This document shows positions 1,763 through 27,487 of a stretch of 64,000 nucleotides of DNA, in pieces (within the stretch, counting starts at the first letter, position 1; the number at the start of each line of letters is the position of its first letter). The stretch comes from a bacterium (GTDB lineage Bacteria > Patescibacteriota > Minisyncoccia > Phycocordibacterales > UBA5272), in NCBI GenBank assembly GCA_043765155.1, contig JAYUJP010000001.1, forward strand, positions 19,268 to 83,267, read 5' to 3'. A model generated the notes under the pieces. That model did no database searches and was not told the DNA's origin. It saw nothing but the letters and a program-made list of their open reading frames with translations. Both the position numbers and the translations under genes were made by a program.

Positions 1763-2479
1763 ATGAAAAAAGATATACTAAAAAATATTTCGATATTAAT
1801 AGGAGCGACAATAATAGGGCTCAGCATACTTGGGGGATTTTATTTAAATAATAAAATGGGAAATAGTGGCAAAAATGACTTTGTTGATCCTGATTCGTTT
1901 TTCTCAGGACGAGAATTTAAAAAAGAGGAATTTCTGATTGGCAGCGGAAGCAAAAAAGTAATCTTGCTAGAATACTCTGATCTTGAGTGTCCATTTTGCA
2001 AAAAATTACATATAGATACAATGCAAGAAATATATAAAAATTATGGCTCAAAAGTAGACATAGCATTTCGTCATTTCCCCCTACCTTTTCATAAAAAGGC
2101 TAAGACAGAGGCTACAGCCACACTTTGCGCCCGTGATATTGGCGGTCAACAGGCTTACAAAAATTATATAGGTAAAATATATGAAAAAACTCAAGGCAAT
2201 GATAGCCTAGACCTAAATACTTTGCCTGATATAGCAAAAGAGATAGGGTTAAATGTTACCAGCTTTAACTCTTGTATGAGTAATGCTAGTAGCTCAGAAA
2301 CAAAATTAGCGTTAATAGAATCGGATATACAAGATGGTATATCAGCCGGAGTAGAAGGCACACCAAATGTATTTGTACTTATCAAGGATGGACAGGATTA
2401 TAAAAAGTTCACAATTATAAATGGCGCAAGAGATTATAAATATGTCTCAAAGGTTATAGATCAAGCTTTGAAGCAATAA
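1763..2479 (+). CDS. DsbA-family thiol:disulfide oxidoreductase, membrane-anchored, with a CPFC active site.
   Basis: N-terminal TM/signal anchor, and the thioredoxin-fold CxxC motif ECPFCKK followed by a DsbA-like helical insertion. Confidence 0.7.
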   Translation: MKKDILKNISILIGATIIGLSILGGFYLNNKMGNSGKNDFVDPDSFFSGREFKKEEFLIGSGSKKVILLEYSDLECPFCKKLHIDTMQEIYKNYGSKVDIAFRHFPLPFHKKAKTEATATLCARDIGGQQAYKNYIGKIYEKTQGNDSLDLNTLPDIAKEIGLNVTSFNSCMSNASSSETKLALIESDIQDGISAGVEGTPNVFVLIKDGQDYKKFTIINGARDYKYVSKVIDQALKQ

Positions 2480-21422: not shown

Positions 21423-21596
21423 TTTTTTGGTTATCTTAAAATTAAAACTTGTGTATAATCTTAATCTATGTTACTTGTTATTATATAACATTTGTGTTAT
21501 AATAACAACTTCTCTAAGCAAATTGTAAATCTGAGGCATACTGTCAAAAGATACAATTATAAGACTTTTTGAAAAACAAAAAAGAGGAAGTAAATT

Positions 21597-21755
21597 ATGA
21601 GTTCTTTAGGTTTTAACTTTGCAGTGACTGGGTACTTTTGTGCACAGCTAATAACTGCGTTATTCAGGAGTGAAGTTGCCAAAAACAAAATAGAAAGAGA
21701 AAGAAAAATTGACGCTAGGGTTTTAAAATCCTGGCCTGGGCAATTATCTAACTAA
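21597..21755 (+). CDS. Possible small protein of 52 aa, hypothetical.
   Basis: ATG preceded by aagaggaag. It translates to MSSLGFNFAVTGYFCAQLITALFRSEVAKNKIERERKIDARVLKSWPGQLSN. It lies in a cassette with the next small ORF. Confidence 0.25.
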   Translation: MSSLGFNFAVTGYFCAQLITALFRSEVAKNKIERERKIDARVLKSWPGQLSN

Positions 21756-21770
21756 AAACGGAGACAAGAA

Positions 21771-21965
21771 ATGAGTGTTGAACAAAAACAACCCGAGAAT
21801 CTTCATAGTCAACAAGAAGAAGCAAGAACTAATCCTTGGAATCAAGGAAATGTGCGGCTTCATCAGCCCGGTGTGAATTGGATGAGAAAAGAGCCTCCCG
21901 GCATTCCACATTATCCGCCAATAGGCCTCAGCAGACATGCTATGGGGGATAATTACCACCGCTGA
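21771..21965 (+). CDS. Hypothetical Pro/Gly-rich small protein of 64 aa.
   Basis: RBS-like ggagacaagaa precedes the ATG, and a terminator follows. No known family. Confidence 0.3.
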   Translation: MSVEQKQPENLHSQQEEARTNPWNQGNVRLHQPGVNWMRKEPPGIPHYPPIGLSRHAMGDNYHR

Positions 21966-22004
21966 ACTCAATTTTGTAACTTTTAGTTACAAACCCAAAC
22001 AACA

Positions 22005-22046
22005 ACCGCCCGCAATGACAAAAGTCATAGCGAGCGGTTTTTTTAT
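22005..22046. terminator. Intrinsic terminator (AACCGCCCGC..tgacaaaagtca..GCGAGCGGTT followed by TTTTTTT).
   Basis: Imperfect GC stem with an internal mini-palindrome followed by a 7-T run. Confidence 0.55.
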
Positions 22047-22067
22047 TGCTAATTTTTATCACCTAAA

Positions 22068-22211: not shown

Positions 22212-22529
22212 ATGGCAATCGAAACTAAAAAAGTCGCTCTTTCAAAAAAGCTTTCAGAGGTGTACAAAGATTTTGCTAAATATGTAACGGAAATGATAAC
22301 CGGCTTACAGGAAAAAGGCAGATTGCAAAGATCTCTGGCTCGCGGGGAAAGAGTAAAGATATTGGCTAATATGACAAAAATGCATGACAAACTCTGCAAA
22401 GCTTTTAAGGAAAAGTATCCTGAGGGGTTAATGCCTTTGACAAATGTTCAAAGGTTCTATCAGGAAGTTATTTTCCCCAAAGTCTTTATTGTTGTTGGCG
22501 CATCACCAAGAATAAGCGCAAGGTATTAA
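22212..22529 (+). CDS. Hypothetical protein of 105 aa.
   Basis: ORF with RBS aaaaggaaat and a downstream terminator. No recognised family. Confidence 0.45.
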   Translation: MAIETKKVALSKKLSEVYKDFAKYVTEMITGLQEKGRLQRSLARGERVKILANMTKMHDKLCKAFKEKYPEGLMPLTNVQRFYQEVIFPKVFIVVGASPRISARY

Positions 22530-22634: not shown

Positions 22635-22955
22635 TTATATGGACAGGGTTTCAGCTATTTCTCTTGCTAACTTTTGGTTATTTTCTTTATTTACTGATCT
22701 TAGTAAATCCTTAACTAGCTCAATAACTTTCTCTTTACTTTTATTATCGTATACGTCTATTAAATTATACAATCTTAGAAATTCTCCCTTAGAGTAATCA
22801 AAAGGTAAGCCGGACTTGTTAAAAGCCTGATCTAATAAATTGCTTTTTTCTGGATCAAGTGTATCTAAGCATAATTCTAATCCCTGTTCCGGGCTTTTAG
22901 CTTCTTCAGGTTTTTCATCTGGGACTGAGTTTGAGTTTATATTTTCTTGATTCAT
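22635..22955 (-). CDS. Hypothetical acidic protein of about 106 aa. The likely start is MNQEN.... The longer 131-aa ORF overlaps the peroxiredoxin gene.
   Basis: ORF downstream of the peroxiredoxin gene on the same strand. The internal ATG start avoids a 17-nt overlap. Confidence 0.4.
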   Translation of the reverse strand: MNQENINSNSVPDEKPEEAKSPEQGLELCLDTLDPEKSNLLDQAFNKSGLPFDYSKGEFLRLYNLIDVYDNKSKEKVIELVKDLLRSVNKENNQKLAREIAETLSI

Positions 22956-23013: not shown

Positions 23014-23775
23014 TTAGATCTTACCAACAAGGTCCACCCCTGGAGTTAGTACGTCGTCACCTGGTTCCCATTTTGCAGGACATACATTAGCACCGTTTTC
23101 ACGGACAAATTTGGCCGCTTGTAACTTTCTATATAACTCCTTTGCATTACGCCCTATGCCATTGTCATTGATCTCTATAATACGTAATACTCCGTCTGGA
23201 TCTATTACAAATGTACCGCGCATGGCCATGCCTTCGTCCTTTACTAGCACATTATAATATCTTGCTAGCTCATGAGTAGTATCAGCAAGCATAGGGAAAT
23301 TAATTTTCTTTATAGTATCACTAGCGTCATGCCATGCCTTATGCGCGTACACGCTATCAGTCGATATAGCTAACACCTCAGCACCGAGGGCCTTGAACTT
23401 TTCATAATACTCAGACATATCCTCAAGCTCAGTAGGACATACAAAAGTAAAGTCAGCTGGATAAAAAAACAATACCACCCACTTATCAGCATAATCTGAG
23501 AGCATTACGTCTTTTATTTTACCTTCATGAAAAGCTTGTAAGCTAAAATCATCTACATTTTTACCTATAGTAACTGTCTCACTGGCCATGTCACTGTAAA
23601 AAGAATTCTGATTAAGACTTTTCATACAAGCTCCCCCATTTTGACATGGACAATCTTCACATCCCTGGCCGCAGCAGCCTCCATTTGCTCCGCATGTATT
23701 ATTTCCACACATATTCATATTATCATCTTCTCCACTTGTGTTATTCATGTTATCATTTTTTTTAAAGCCGAACAT
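23014..23775 (-). CDS. Typical 2-Cys peroxiredoxin (AhpC/Prx1 family) with an N-terminal Cys-rich extension of about 50 aa, which is unusual.
   Basis: The peroxidatic Cys motif FTFVCPTE and the resolving Cys VCPAKW are present. The N-terminal MCGNNTCGANGGCCGQGCEDCPCQNGGAC carries 9 Cys in 30 residues. Confidence 0.8.
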   Translation of the reverse strand: MFGFKKNDNMNNTSGEDDNMNMCGNNTCGANGGCCGQGCEDCPCQNGGACMKSLNQNSFYSDMASETVTIGKNVDDFSLQAFHEGKIKDVMLSDYADKWVVLFFYPADFTFVCPTELEDMSEYYEKFKALGAEVLAISTDSVYAHKAWHDASDTIKKINFPMLADTTHELARYYNVLVKDEGMAMRGTFVIDPDGVLRIIEINDNGIGRNAKELYRKLQAAKFVRENGANVCPAKWEPGDDVLTPGVDLVGKI

Positions 23776-23831
23776 ATTTTTAGTTTTAGATATTATCTGT
23801 TAATATATATATTATAACACATAATACTATT

Positions 23832-25013
23832 ATGCAAAACGTAAATAAAAATGACAACGAAAAAGACTTGGCAAAAATAATAATAGTAATTGGCCCAACG
23901 GCAAGTGGTAAGTCAGACTTAGCTGTTAGCATTGCAAAAGAGATACAAGAAACTGGATACGCAACTATTGAGAAACTAGATTCTAGAAATAAAATATATA
24001 AAAAAGTATTTTTTGATAAAAAAGAATGCGTAATAATCTCAGCTGATAGCAGGCAGATATATAAACACTTAGATATTGGATCTGGTAAGATCACAAAAGA
24101 AGAAATGCAAAATATTCAACATTTTGGACTTGATATAGTTGAACCTAAGTATAACCTAATAGAAAATATAGCTAATAAAAGTACTTTAGAAATGAGAAAT
24201 GAAAATGAATTAAATGCAGAAAAAAAAGACGAAGAAAAAAATAAAATAGAAATATATAAAAACTTCACAGCTGCAGATTGGCTTAGATACGCTACAGATA
24301 AAATAGACAATATAATAAATGAAAACAAGATACCTATAATATGCGGTGGCACTGGGTTATATGTAGACGCCCTACTGTATGGACTAGATGATAATCCAGA
24401 GCCGGATTATATTTTTAGGAAAACTCTCGAAAACAAAACTACAGAAGATATAAAAGATATGATAAAAGAAAAGCTAGCTGAGCAAGATGACTTAGATTAT
24501 TTTTATAATCTTAATAATAGCGAGCAAAATAATAGAAATAGACTTATAAGAAAATTAGAGCTGCTTAACTCAGGGCATAAAATAAAAAATACAGATCTAG
24601 ATAACTCAAAACGAACCCTAAGATATAATGCAGAATTTATTATATTAGAACCAGAATTAGATACTTTACAAGAAAAGATAAAGTTAAGATTAGAAAAGAG
24701 ACTAGGTTTAAATGAAAAAGAAAATAATATAAATAATAGCGCCGCAAGCGTAGCTTGCGGCAGAGAAAGTGAAAAGAATTTAATAGAAAACATAAACTCT
24801 AGCCCATTAATATCAGAAATCAAAGGCCTAATAGAAAATAAAAAAGCAGATCCAAAGTGGTTAATGTCGCTAGGATTAGAATATAAATATGTCACTGAGT
24901 ACGTACTGGGGCAAATAAGTTTTGAGGAGATGGTTGATATCTTAAATATAAAAATATTTCAATATGCCAAAAGGCAAATCAAGTGGAATAGGAGATATGA
25001 GGGACTAAAGTAA
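23832..25013 (+). CDS. miaA: tRNA dimethylallyltransferase (isopentenyl-tRNA transferase) with low-complexity insertions.
   Basis: P-loop GPTASGKS and the motif SADSRQIYKxLDIGSGKIT are present. The C-terminus is MiaA-like. Confidence 0.8.
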   Translation: MQNVNKNDNEKDLAKIIIVIGPTASGKSDLAVSIAKEIQETGYATIEKLDSRNKIYKKVFFDKKECVIISADSRQIYKHLDIGSGKITKEEMQNIQHFGLDIVEPKYNLIENIANKSTLEMRNENELNAEKKDEEKNKIEIYKNFTAADWLRYATDKIDNIINENKIPIICGGTGLYVDALLYGLDDNPEPDYIFRKTLENKTTEDIKDMIKEKLAEQDDLDYFYNLNNSEQNNRNRLIRKLELLNSGHKIKNTDLDNSKRTLRYNAEFIILEPELDTLQEKIKLRLEKRLGLNEKENNINNSAASVACGRESEKNLIENINSSPLISEIKGLIENKKADPKWLMSLGLEYKYVTEYVLGQISFEEMVDILNIKIFQYAKRQIKWNRRYEGLK

Positions 25014-25864: not shown

Positions 25865-27487
25865 TTACAAACCATCCCCATAACTGTTTATTAATTTTTG
25901 ATAATCTTCAGGATTTTTGGTATATTGCCTAAATCCAAGTGAGATTCTACTTTCACCCTCTTCTAATTTTTTTATATAATGTATAGGCCGCTGTTTTATG
26001 TTCATAAAGTCATAACCGCGCATGAGTATAATATCTCCAGGGCTTGCTTGTATATATTTTTCTCCATTACACTCCCTATCTTTTGCGATATAGAATTTTG
26101 AATCTCCTTCGATCAGCATCACAGCTACTAGCCCGACAAACCCTTTTTGATCCTGATGCGGTGGTATGGAAAATTTATCTTCGTTTTTATTCTCGTAACC
26201 CTGCTCTTTTTTTAATTTATTTTCTAGTGGTATGATTTTGTTTAAGTTATTATTTTCTTTTTTATGATTACCATAATCCTGCAATATTACATTATCAAAT
26301 TTTACTTTATCTAGATTATACTTTTCTAATTCACAATTTAAATTGTATTCTATATGATTTTTAAGATCCTCAAAAAAGTTTTTATTTATAAAATTAGTCT
26401 TTTGAAAAAAGTTTTGATATATAGCTCCTATTGTCGGCGAGCTGGTCATACCTATTCTGCTCTCTCTTTTAATTATTTTTAGAATATGAGATATTTTATC
26501 TCTGGCATTTTCTATATTTTTTAATTCTTCATCCTCTTCTTGATTTATTTTTAAAGTAGTTACCCCAATATTAACATCAAGTAATTCTCGCACATTCTGC
26601 TCAGTGATTTTGTACTTAAAATTAGAAAATATATCTAGACTATTTTCTGCATCACACATTTCTTTGTAATATTTTATATTATGAGTTCTAAATATTATAT
26701 TGTTACTTTTATTTTTAATAAAAGCGTGCATTATACTAGTTATATGATCGGCTTCTTTTACGTCATTGTCTCCTGTGATATTTCTTAAGAATTTCTTCCT
26801 AGATATGCCAATTAGCAGTTTAACACTAGGATATTTTTGATTTATTATTTTCATAATATAATCTAACTCTCTTAATATTTCTAGATTATCTTTTTCCCTT
26901 TTTGAAAATCCAATACAAGGGTCTATTATTATTCTATTATTTTCTATACCCAGACTTTTTAAGATATCAATCTTATTGTCGAAGTATTCTATAAGCTCAG
27001 ACACCATATCGTCATAATCATACTTAGAGTGTGTGGTTTCAAATTCTCCCTTAATATGACCTATTATGTATTTTATATTTTTATACTTAGATATAAGCTT
27101 AAACATTTTATGGTCTAGCTCACCACCAGAAATATCATTAACAATATCAGCTCCGCACTCTATGGCAACTTTTGCAACCTCACTTCTAAAAGTATCTACT
27201 GAGATTTGATACTCTAGATTATTAATTTGTCTATATTTTGCTAGAAACTTTACAGCTTTTCCTATTAACTCTTTTTCTAACTCTACAGATATAAGCTCAG
27301 CTTTATGATTAGTCGCTTGGGCGCCTATATCTATAATATCTGCTTTATATTTTATCGCTTCTTTTATTTTCATCTCTAAATATTCATAGCTAGCGTCACC
27401 CTTTTCACTAAAGCTACTTTCTGTAAGATTAATTATATACATAGATATATTTTTAATGTCTAGGTTTTTTATATTTTTTTCTATCAT
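25865..27487 (-). CDS. folP: Dihydropteroate synthase (first 290 aa or so) fused to a C-terminal AlkB-like Fe(II)/2-oxoglutarate dioxygenase domain.
   Basis: DHPS motifs are DIIDIGAQATN and ISVDTFRSEVAKVAIECGADIVNDISGG. The C-terminal HQDQKGFVGLVAVMLIEGDSKFYI...ASPGDIILMRGY...RPIHYI parallels AlkB HQDKDE...VSLG...LxHGDxxVxGG...HGV (HxD...H triad). Confidence 0.75.
   Translation of the reverse strand: MIEKNIKNLDIKNISMYIINLTESSFSEKGDASYEYLEMKIKEAIKYKADIIDIGAQATNHKAELISVELEKELIGKAVKFLAKYRQINNLEYQISVDTFRSEVAKVAIECGADIVNDISGGELDHKMFKLISKYKNIKYIIGHIKGEFETTHSKYDYDDMVSELIEYFDNKIDILKSLGIENNRIIIDPCIGFSKREKDNLEILRELDYIMKIINQKYPSVKLLIGISRKKFLRNITGDNDVKEADHITSIMHAFIKNKSNNIIFRTHNIKYYKEMCDAENSLDIFSNFKYKITEQNVRELLDVNIGVTTLKINQEEDEELKNIENARDKISHILKIIKRESRIGMTSSPTIGAIYQNFFQKTNFINKNFFEDLKNHIEYNLNCELEKYNLDKVKFDNVILQDYGNHKKENNNLNKIIPLENKLKKEQGYENKNEDKFSIPPHQDQKGFVGLVAVMLIEGDSKFYIAKDRECNGEKYIQASPGDIILMRGYDFMNIKQRPIHYIKKLEEGESRISLGFRQYTKNPEDYQKLINSYGDGL

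Follow-up and report, generated by a model that had tools for sequence, protein, structure and literature searches.

We describe here a peroxiredoxin gene whose product carries a conserved, cysteine-rich module ahead of its catalytic core, encoded on the minus strand of a 64,000-nucleotide stretch of contig JAYUJP010000001.1 (assembly GCA_043765155.1), from a bacterium of the Patescibacteriota lineage UBA5272. The whole of this stretch is referred to below as the window, with positions counted from its first letter. A single 253-residue ATG-to-stop open reading frame (ORF) lies exactly at 23014..23775, the coordinates given in the initial annotation, which left the strand unstated. The polypeptide is formed of four parts, namely a leader (residues 1-22), the Cys-rich module (residues 23-50), a linker (residues 51-67) and an AhpC-type core (residues 68-253), with the extension ahead of the core thus amounting to 67 residues. 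The enzyme is ordinary and its appendage undescribed. Our analysis shows that the module is translated as part of the protein and conserved to the same degree as the core, and we read it, with somewhat less than even confidence, as a metal-binding accessory.

The initial annotation had described the core as a textbook AhpC/peroxiredoxin, and domain, structure and active-site matches all agree on a typical 2-Cys enzyme. Residues 70-198 matched the Pfam family AhpC-TSA (1.9e-42) and residues 221-245 matched 1-cysPrx_C (PF10417; 1.7e-06), while the NCBIfam AhpC model TIGR03137 covered residues 69-253 at model positions 3-187 of 187, with 267.6 bits against an equivalog cut-off of 272 bits. A PDB sequence search returned Amphibacillus xylanus AhpC (1we0) as the best match (3.8e-59; query residues 70-253), along with the E. 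coli and Salmonella enzymes, with 44-51% identity between the core and solved AhpCs, and an AlphaFold2 model of the core superposed on Salmonella AhpC with a target TM-score of 0.90-0.94. The motifs FTFVCPTE and VCPAKW were found as claimed, at residues 109-116 and 231-236, with C113 as the peroxidatic and C232 as the resolving Cys. Across 21 homologues P106, F109, F111, V112, C113, R186, V231, C232, P233, A234 and W236 were invariant and T110 nearly so. Judged from its sequence, the core has all of the residues for the standard cycle, in which C113 becomes a sulfenic acid, forms a C113-C232' disulfide and is returned by an external thiol reductant, and both peroxidase activity and assembly into an (alpha2)5 decamer are predicted from sequence and model. 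The core shares with bacterial AhpC the fold, the PxxxTxxC motif, the active-site Arg, the resolving Cys in VCP and the C-terminal ...LVGKI. However, classical AhpC is 186-187 residues long, has no N-terminal extension and is usually encoded beside ahpF, whereas the window protein has its long extension and no ahpF nearby.

The module contains eight Cys (C23, C28, C34, C35, C39, C42, C44 and C50), one fewer than the nine that had been counted in the first ~50 residues, and the spacing strings reported there, CGNNTCG and GGCCGQGCEDCPCQNGGAC, are both present. Cys makes up 8/28 residues (29%), with no Phe, Tyr or Trp, and CC, CxC, CxxC and CxxxC are packed within 17 residues. By comparison, Cys accounts for 0.84% (145/17319) of the residues encoded by the window's 51 remaining large ORFs, the probability of at least eight Cys within 28 residues is 6e-11 per position, and the runner-up 28-residue stretch, with five Cys, is the known Cys cluster of UvrC. 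The reported local rise in GC content was likewise seen, with 50% in the module codons compared with 32.9% in the window, 40% in the AhpC core and 27% in the leader. AlphaFold2 gave a predicted local distance difference test score (pLDDT) below 50 for residues 1-64 of the full-length model and a mean of 48.6 for the module alone. The protein sequence has neither a signal peptide nor a hydrophobic N-terminus.

Comparison with orthologues supported a translated and conserved module. Thirteen clusters among the 120 best homologues have in common the pattern CG-x(3-6)-CCGxxCxDCPCxNGxxC, located directly upstream of the core and in one frame. C34, C35, G36, C39, C42, P43, C44 and N46 are invariant in these 13 orthologues and C28, G29, D41, G47 and C50 nearly invariant, so that seven Cys together with G36, D41, P43, N46 and G47 are conserved in the family. 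Identity to the window protein across the full-motif orthologues was 65-78% for the module (residues 28-50) and 59-81% for the core, but only 0-29% for the linker (residues 51-67), a contrast that would suit a discrete, selected domain on a freely evolving tether. Furthermore, all eight Cys are kept in the six full-length members of the 90%-identity cluster of the window protein, with the neighbouring residues varying. Additional Cys clusters take the place of the linker, or lengthen it, in several orthologues, whose tails hold 5-19 Cys. Orthology is indicated by a divergent miaA neighbour in every contig recovered, the divergent IPPT-peroxiredoxin pair being found in the contigs of proteins P0002, P0014, P0006, P0007 and P0132.

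The same comparisons establish that the Cys-rich segment belongs to the protein, and a scenario in which an internal Met is the true start and the upstream segment is untranslated fails on synonymous codon use, on a conserved promoter and start, and on a module that is conserved like the core. In six orthologue DNAs the codons for invariant Cys, Gly, Pro and Gln vary only synonymously, at third positions (TGT/TGC, GGA/GGT/GGC/GGG, CCA/CCT and CAA/CAG), and this restriction of the variation to synonymous codons argues for selection on the protein. One open frame runs through all of the orthologues, with insertions and deletions of whole codons. Locus L045 (protein P0132, of the same 90%-identity cluster) has a nearly identical promoter-like TTTGCA-16-TGTTATAAT and the same 5' leader ...CTAAAACTAAAAAT, with its ATG at the homologous position and in the same AAAAAT-ATG start. 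P0132 is 19 residues shorter than the window protein and begins MCGEDNNVCG, with an in-frame 19-codon insertion or deletion directly after the start codon (MFGFKKNDNMNNTSGEDDNMNMCG... in the window versus MCGEDNNVCG... in L045, 3001-3030). Since L045 shares the leader and the ATG position but encodes a shorter protein, residues 2-21 of the window protein represent an in-frame, lineage-specific expansion. In the more distant orthologue L043 a TGcTATAAT box lies at the same distance, and the gene opens with ATGTTTGACAAATTTAAAAAA (MFDKFKK), where the window has MFGFKKN. Eight contigs encode the identical protein, gene callers choose the long ORF, and the leader shows the polymorphisms D8N, M10I and G15V within the 90% cluster.

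The start context points the same way. A GGGGGAG run is located 5 nucleotides before the codon for M51 and would favour a start there, but a Shine-Dalgarno-like motif is present at only 4/52 gene starts among the large ORFs of the window, and the run encodes the conserved NGG. Many gene starts in the window, that of M1 included, follow an A-rich ...AAAAAT context, which suggests initiation independent of a Shine-Dalgarno sequence. Because frame, codon, synteny, promoter/start and start-context evidence agree, we rejected the internal-Met start, and on this sequence evidence the polypeptide is translated from the first ATG, at 23775. The promoter-like site, which is known as a consensus match only, overlaps the first codons of the divergent miaA. 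Coordinates of these features are collected in Table 1.

Table 1. Features of the peroxiredoxin gene and its divergent neighbour, in window coordinates.
Feature	Position	Strand	Evidence
Promoter-like site TTTGCA-16 nt-TG-n-TATAAT (extended -10)	23811..23838	-	Consensus scan, 10/12 matches + TG
Start codon ATG (M1), CTAAAAAT just before	23773..23775	-	Position homologous in L045
Variable leader, residues 1-22 (MFGFKKNDNMNNTSGEDDNMNM), Asn/Asp-rich, 27% GC	23710..23775	-	In frame, indel-prone
Cys-rich module, residues 23-50, CGNNTCGANGGCCGQGCEDCPCQNGGAC, 8 Cys	23626..23709	-	Orthologue alignment, codon comparison
Fast-evolving linker, residues 51-67 (MKSLNQNSFYSDMASET)	23575..23625	-	Identity across orthologues
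AhpC-type typical 2-Cys peroxiredoxin core, residues 68-253	23017..23574	-	Pfam, NCBIfam, PDB, AlphaFold2
Active-site motif PADFTFVC (PxxxTxxC)	23437..23460	-	Alignment of 21 homologues
Peroxidatic Cys C113	23437-23439	-	
Conserved active-site Arg R186	23218..23220	-	Invariant in alignment of 21 homologues
Resolving Cys C232 within VCPAKW	23080..23082	-	Invariant in alignment of 21 homologues
Stop codon of peroxiredoxin gene	23014-23016	-	
miaA (tRNA isopentenyltransferase), divergent neighbour	23832..25013	+	IPPT 1.4e-45

We then looked at how widely the module is distributed. Searching five tails against Pfam and NCBIfam at E<=10 returned no family, other than one weak chance match to a bacteriocin model. 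True members score 43-65 bits with a profile built for the module, and a HMMER run of this profile through 1.84 billion representative proteins clustered at 50% identity gave seven matches, one of which was a true member (peroxiredoxin P0124, with the same module), with the other six being long proteins hit through many repeated stretches. The three of these that were read (P0125-P0127) contain eukaryote-type epidermal growth factor (EGF) repeats sharing only PCQNGGxC, and homology to EGF was rejected. The stretch DCPCQNGGAC (residues 41-50; 23626-23655, minus strand) does resemble the first half of EGF repeats (C..PCQNGGxC), a likeness that we judged to be convergent. A tail alignment (A2) compared with an index of 5.8 billion proteins found nothing at E<=0.01 or at E<=10, although its profile recovers true members locally, and a degenerate DNA pattern for CCGxxCxDCPCxNG located a single locus in metagenome contigs (L038, the contig of P0009), a collection in which the long motif is therefore rare. 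Across the databases searched, every occurrence of the module preceded this peroxiredoxin. Likewise, our literature search, itself incomplete, found no description of a Cys-rich tail on a bacterial AhpC, with Entamoeba providing the only peroxiredoxin case.

Shorter tails are common among relatives. The number of Cys ahead of the core in the 120 closest homologues was at least two in 91, at least three in 78 and at least five in 24, with none in 22, and most tails of the clade are short and of the type M-x(4-8)-CCGGCE. Their composition (C 16%, G 12%, E 11%, N 9%, D 8.5%) is accompanied by a net negative charge in 75/78, and across 98 tails the count of Cys had a mode of three, with 58 odd and 40 even values and no preference for even numbers. 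The named relatives with tails are all Patescibacteria (Paceibacterota, Parcubacteria, Lloydbacteria and 'Patescibacteria group'). A scan of genome contigs with the full protein recovered 31 AhpC loci, with short Cys tails only in L001, L003, L008 and L023 (Patescibacteria-type records) and the long motif in none of the 31, while DPANN archaeal relatives from GTDB genomes had no Cys tails. The window organism is probably itself a Patescibacterium, to judge from these named relatives, from the 33% GC and from gene starts poor in Shine-Dalgarno motifs. The proteins with the long module form a small orthologous group from uncultured, AT-rich bacteria, probably Patescibacteria, and the module itself is the elaborate end of a clade-wide habit of short, acidic, Cys-rich N-terminal tails.

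The reading that we favour, to which we give a little less than an even chance and which draws on analogy with known proteins, is that the module is a tethered metal-thiolate mini-domain acting as an oxidant-sensitive accessory and not as a turnover reductant. It is suggested by the 29% Cys content with CC, CxxxC, CxxC and CxC within 17 residues, by the conserved Gly, Pro, Asn and Asp turn-formers, and by the absence of a confidently predicted apo fold. Since no signal peptide is present, the location would be the reducing, metal-buffered cytoplasm. Odd Cys counts disfavour a set of paired disulfides, and tails that are acidic and without a thioredoxin fold disfavour a nucleophilic relay. As we envisage it, the module would fold only around its metal, most likely Zn(II), with Cu(I) or another thiophilic ion possible, and would hang on its linker near the peroxiredoxin ring, where by analogy with the Entamoeba enzyme it may point into the lumen. 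The core would perform the peroxidase chemistry, with C113 converted to a sulfenic acid and then to a disulfide with C232 of the partner subunit, and would be re-reduced by an external thiol reductant, with the module taking no part in turnover. Under peroxide stress the thiolates would become oxidised and the metal set free, with a consequent change in the conformation of the module, its binding to partners or the oligomeric state; similar proposals exist for Hsp33 and for the bacterial Trx2 Zn finger. The module would also buffer thiophilic metal.

Several points weigh against the metal-thiolate reading. The module is in no curated metallothionein or zinc-finger family, and for its Cys spacing we could confirm no match to a known Zn, Cu or Fe-S motif. 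The tails are acidic, whereas metallothioneins are usually Lys/Ser-rich, and those of the orthologues range from 5 to 19 Cys, with almost none in the close relatives P0012 and P0008, which would fit a bulk thiol property as well. No alignment column of the core separates tailed from tail-less proteins, and a docking surface is accordingly not indicated. Low pLDDT values would also be expected of a tail that is permanently disordered, and the position in the ring lumen is taken by analogy from a Prx1-type eukaryotic enzyme, where it was itself tentatively assigned. The mechanism as a whole is one that we infer.

The module can be likened to metallothioneins, and the label 'metallothionein-like' given in the initial annotation holds for the composition of the module (29% Cys, with CC, CxC, CxxC and CxxxC) but not for its family, as it falls into no curated metallothionein family. 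Shared features are ~30% Cys, compared with 15-30% in metallothioneins, the CC/CxC/CxxC spacings, a lack of aromatic residues, fillers of the Gly/Asn/Ser type and no predicted metal-free fold. However, metallothioneins such as bacterial SmtA/BmtA are free-standing and Lys-rich, whereas the module is fused to an enzyme, is acidic and has no Pfam metallothionein match at E<=10. It may also resemble the small fungal Cu-thioneins with seven Cys. A functional resemblance can be drawn to bacterial Trx2 (TrxC), likewise an oxidative-stress thiol-redox enzyme with an N-terminal Cys-rich extension, in that case dispensable for basal catalysis: two extra CXXC motifs form a Zn finger at the Trx2 N-terminus, and mutation of the Zn-binding Cys does not abolish its reductase activity (PMC8615215). 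The Trx2 finger has four Cys in two CXXC motifs on a thioredoxin, whereas the module has seven or eight Cys, only one CxxC (C39-C42) and a different spacing, on a peroxiredoxin. No zinc-ribbon or zinc-finger family matched the module, and the resemblance to the Trx2 finger is functional only.

The 29-kDa peroxiredoxin of Entamoeba histolytica (EhPrx/Eh29, P19476) is likewise a typical 2-Cys enzyme with a Cys-rich N-terminal extension, in this case of ~40 residues (PMC13532219, PMC4009108, PMC5493030). Its residues 1-23 are flexible, and additional density seen in the middle of the decamer ring may be due to them (PMC13532219). Entamoeba is an anaerobe or microaerophile, and the function of the extension is unclear. 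The EhPrx tail is Lys/Glu-rich and partly helical, with CC and CCC runs (..NQQKECCKK..QEKECCKECCCPRI; ..KECCKK..KECCKECCCPRI), whereas the window tail is Gly/Asn/Asp-rich with another Cys pattern. The EhPrx sequence, verified in part, had its best match in Prx1/Prx2. The EhPrx core is reported to be 52% identical to human PrxII (PMC4009108). As this core is PrxII-like and that of the window protein is AhpC-type, the two tails are analogous and not homologous, and were probably acquired independently.

The main alternative to the metal-thiolate reading, possible though doubtful, is a built-in thiol relay or capacitor, in which tail Cys, acting in cis or from across the ring, would reduce the C113-C232 disulfide. 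In a minimal genome poor in reductases, this would give several extra peroxide turnovers per subunit or pass on electrons from an as yet unknown donor. The first suggestion in the initial annotation was of this kind, namely that the extension could deliver electrons in the absence of AhpF or Trx partners. Thiol modules appended to and serving peroxiredoxins have general precedent in peroxiredoxin-glutaredoxin hybrids and the N-terminal domain of AhpF, the ~17-residue linker is long and flexible enough to reach the active site, and the variable and often large number of Cys (3-19) would suit a stoichiometric thiol pool. Moreover, neither the 64-kb window nor the surroundings of the gene in five orthologous contigs showed an ahpF, trxB or trxA signature. 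The gene neighbours in these contigs, as in the window, were miaA and small hypothetical genes, and no ORF of the window combines a CxxC with an FAD motif. However, the known modules are thioredoxin or glutaredoxin folds with a single CxxC, none of which is detectable in residues 1-67, and not segments rich in Cys, Gly and Asp that lack a predicted structure. Judging from the tail composition, thiols with acidic neighbours would have a higher pKa, to the detriment of thiol-disulfide exchange, the strict G36, D41, P43, N46 and G47 and the exact spacing exceed the needs of a thiol pool, and a capacitor would still need recharging by some reductase. Candidate phyla radiation genomes are reported to keep oxidative-stress enzymes in almost all metagenome-assembled genomes (PMC9166423), which makes the lack of a partner uncertain. 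The only CxxC protein with a thioredoxin fold detected in the window is a DsbA-like protein (1763..2479, plus strand) with a CPFC active site (Thioredoxin_4 1.1e-14; DSBA 1.5e-10).

A more speculative and rather unlikely proposal is that the modules of the ten subunits converge in the lumen of the AhpC ring, where a metal-thiolate or Fe-S assembly common to all of them, or else a pool of ~80 thiols, would serve as a self-contained electron store or redox sensor.

An Fe-S site is unlikely. Here the conserved Cys, for example C35-x3-C39-x2-C42 with C44 or C50, would hold a [4Fe-4S] or [2Fe-2S] cluster for sensing of O2 or peroxide or for electron transfer from a ferredoxin-type donor. The CxxxCxxC spacing, the acidic, ferredoxin-like composition and the lack of a predicted apo fold would suit it, as would a probably anaerobic life, in which Fe-S proteins are common (PMC5220378). 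Set against this, no Fe-S family model matched, relatives with short tails hold three or four Cys in CCGGC-type runs that are too tight for a one-chain cubane, and next to a site of peroxide reduction a cluster would easily be destroyed.

We consider still less probable a structural disulfide staple or EGF-like knot that would lock dimers or decamers in the manner of the Prx4 N-terminal region. The module profile does match EGF repeats through PCQNGGxC, and N-terminal extensions of other peroxiredoxins affect the oligomer interface (PMC13532219). However, the likeness extends over ~10 residues and the rest of the signature (Y.C.C..G[FY].G..C) is absent; an EGF-like domain is extracytoplasmic and needs six Cys in three disulfides, including C-x-C-x(5)-G-x(2)-C, whereas this second half is missing from the module. 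Seven conserved Cys, with odd counts in 58/98 tails, are ill-suited to paired disulfides, and a protein without a signal peptide would remain in the reducing cytoplasm.

That the tail is a functionless, low-complexity segment, or that its start was mis-called and M51 is the real one, is very improbable: tails are often gained, lost and resized (tail Cys are absent from 22/120 of the closest homologues), co-variation with the tail was seen at no position of the core and the G-run does precede M51, but the module is conserved like the catalytic core with synonymous-only codon variation, all eight Cys are kept in the six full-length cluster members with varying flanks, Shine-Dalgarno sites are rare in the genome, the G-run is accounted for by the conserved NGG, and promoter and start are conserved.

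Two further candidates were rejected. A lipoprotein or secretion signal was discarded for want of a hydrophobic N-terminus, and a precursor of the ribosomally synthesised and post-translationally modified peptide type, resembling those with six cysteines in forty-five residues (RiPP/SCIFF-like), was discarded as there was no family match and no neighbouring radical S-adenosylmethionine enzyme or maturase, and the segment is fused upstream of an enzyme.

Other observations were made around the gene. The window miaA encodes 393 residues, compared with 277-328 in orthologous contigs, and the IPPT model covers it in three stretches, indicating an insertion of ~60-90 residues that is Asn/Glu/Lys-rich. 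Downstream of the peroxiredoxin gene, two small ORFs (22635-22955, minus strand, 106 residues; 22212-22529, plus strand, 105 residues) had no significant Pfam family, and the gene at this side differs among orthologous contigs, being AAA_28 in L036, TM2 in L039 and hypothetical elsewhere. Between uvrC and these small ORFs, ~500 nucleotides at 21550-22050 (both strands) have a GC content above that of the flanks and only short, implausible ORFs. This region folds better than shuffled sequences (z -2.9 on the plus and -2.4 on the minus strand) and has at its end a hairpin of terminator type, GCCCGC...GCGAGCGG, with a T-run after it (~22005-22045, plus strand). It had no Rfam match at E<=1 above chance level and contains no transfer-messenger RNA or tRNA, with identical copies only in contigs of the same species, and it may be an undescribed structured RNA.

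The dihydropteroate synthase gene (25865-27487, minus strand) encodes 540 residues, of which Pterin_bind covers only residues 16-256, with no Pfam match at E<=0.1 in the C-terminal ~280 residues. Inspected by eye, this C-terminal region has an HxD...H...RxS arrangement (PPHQD, PIHYI, SRISLGFR) that recalls 2-oxoglutarate-Fe(II) oxygenases; possibly, a novel fusion has arisen in the folB-folK-folP cluster.

Few antioxidant enzymes have been studied as thoroughly as peroxiredoxins, to whose biology the manner of their reduction and regulation is central. Here, one lineage has fixed a seven-Cys module that is conserved like the active site and found nowhere else among 1.8 billion representative proteins, in organisms whose redox biology is almost unknown and which cannot as yet be cultured on their own. 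It provides a bacterial counterpart to the unexplained Cys-rich tail of the Entamoeba peroxiredoxin. If the modules were indeed to converge in the ring lumen, they would let a Patescibacterium with a minimal genome detoxify bursts of peroxide without a dedicated reductase, and the short CCGGC-type tails of the clade would represent this device in a simpler form. More broadly, an AhpC clade of uncultured, genome-reduced bacteria with acidic Cys tails points to an undescribed accessory function of this enzyme.

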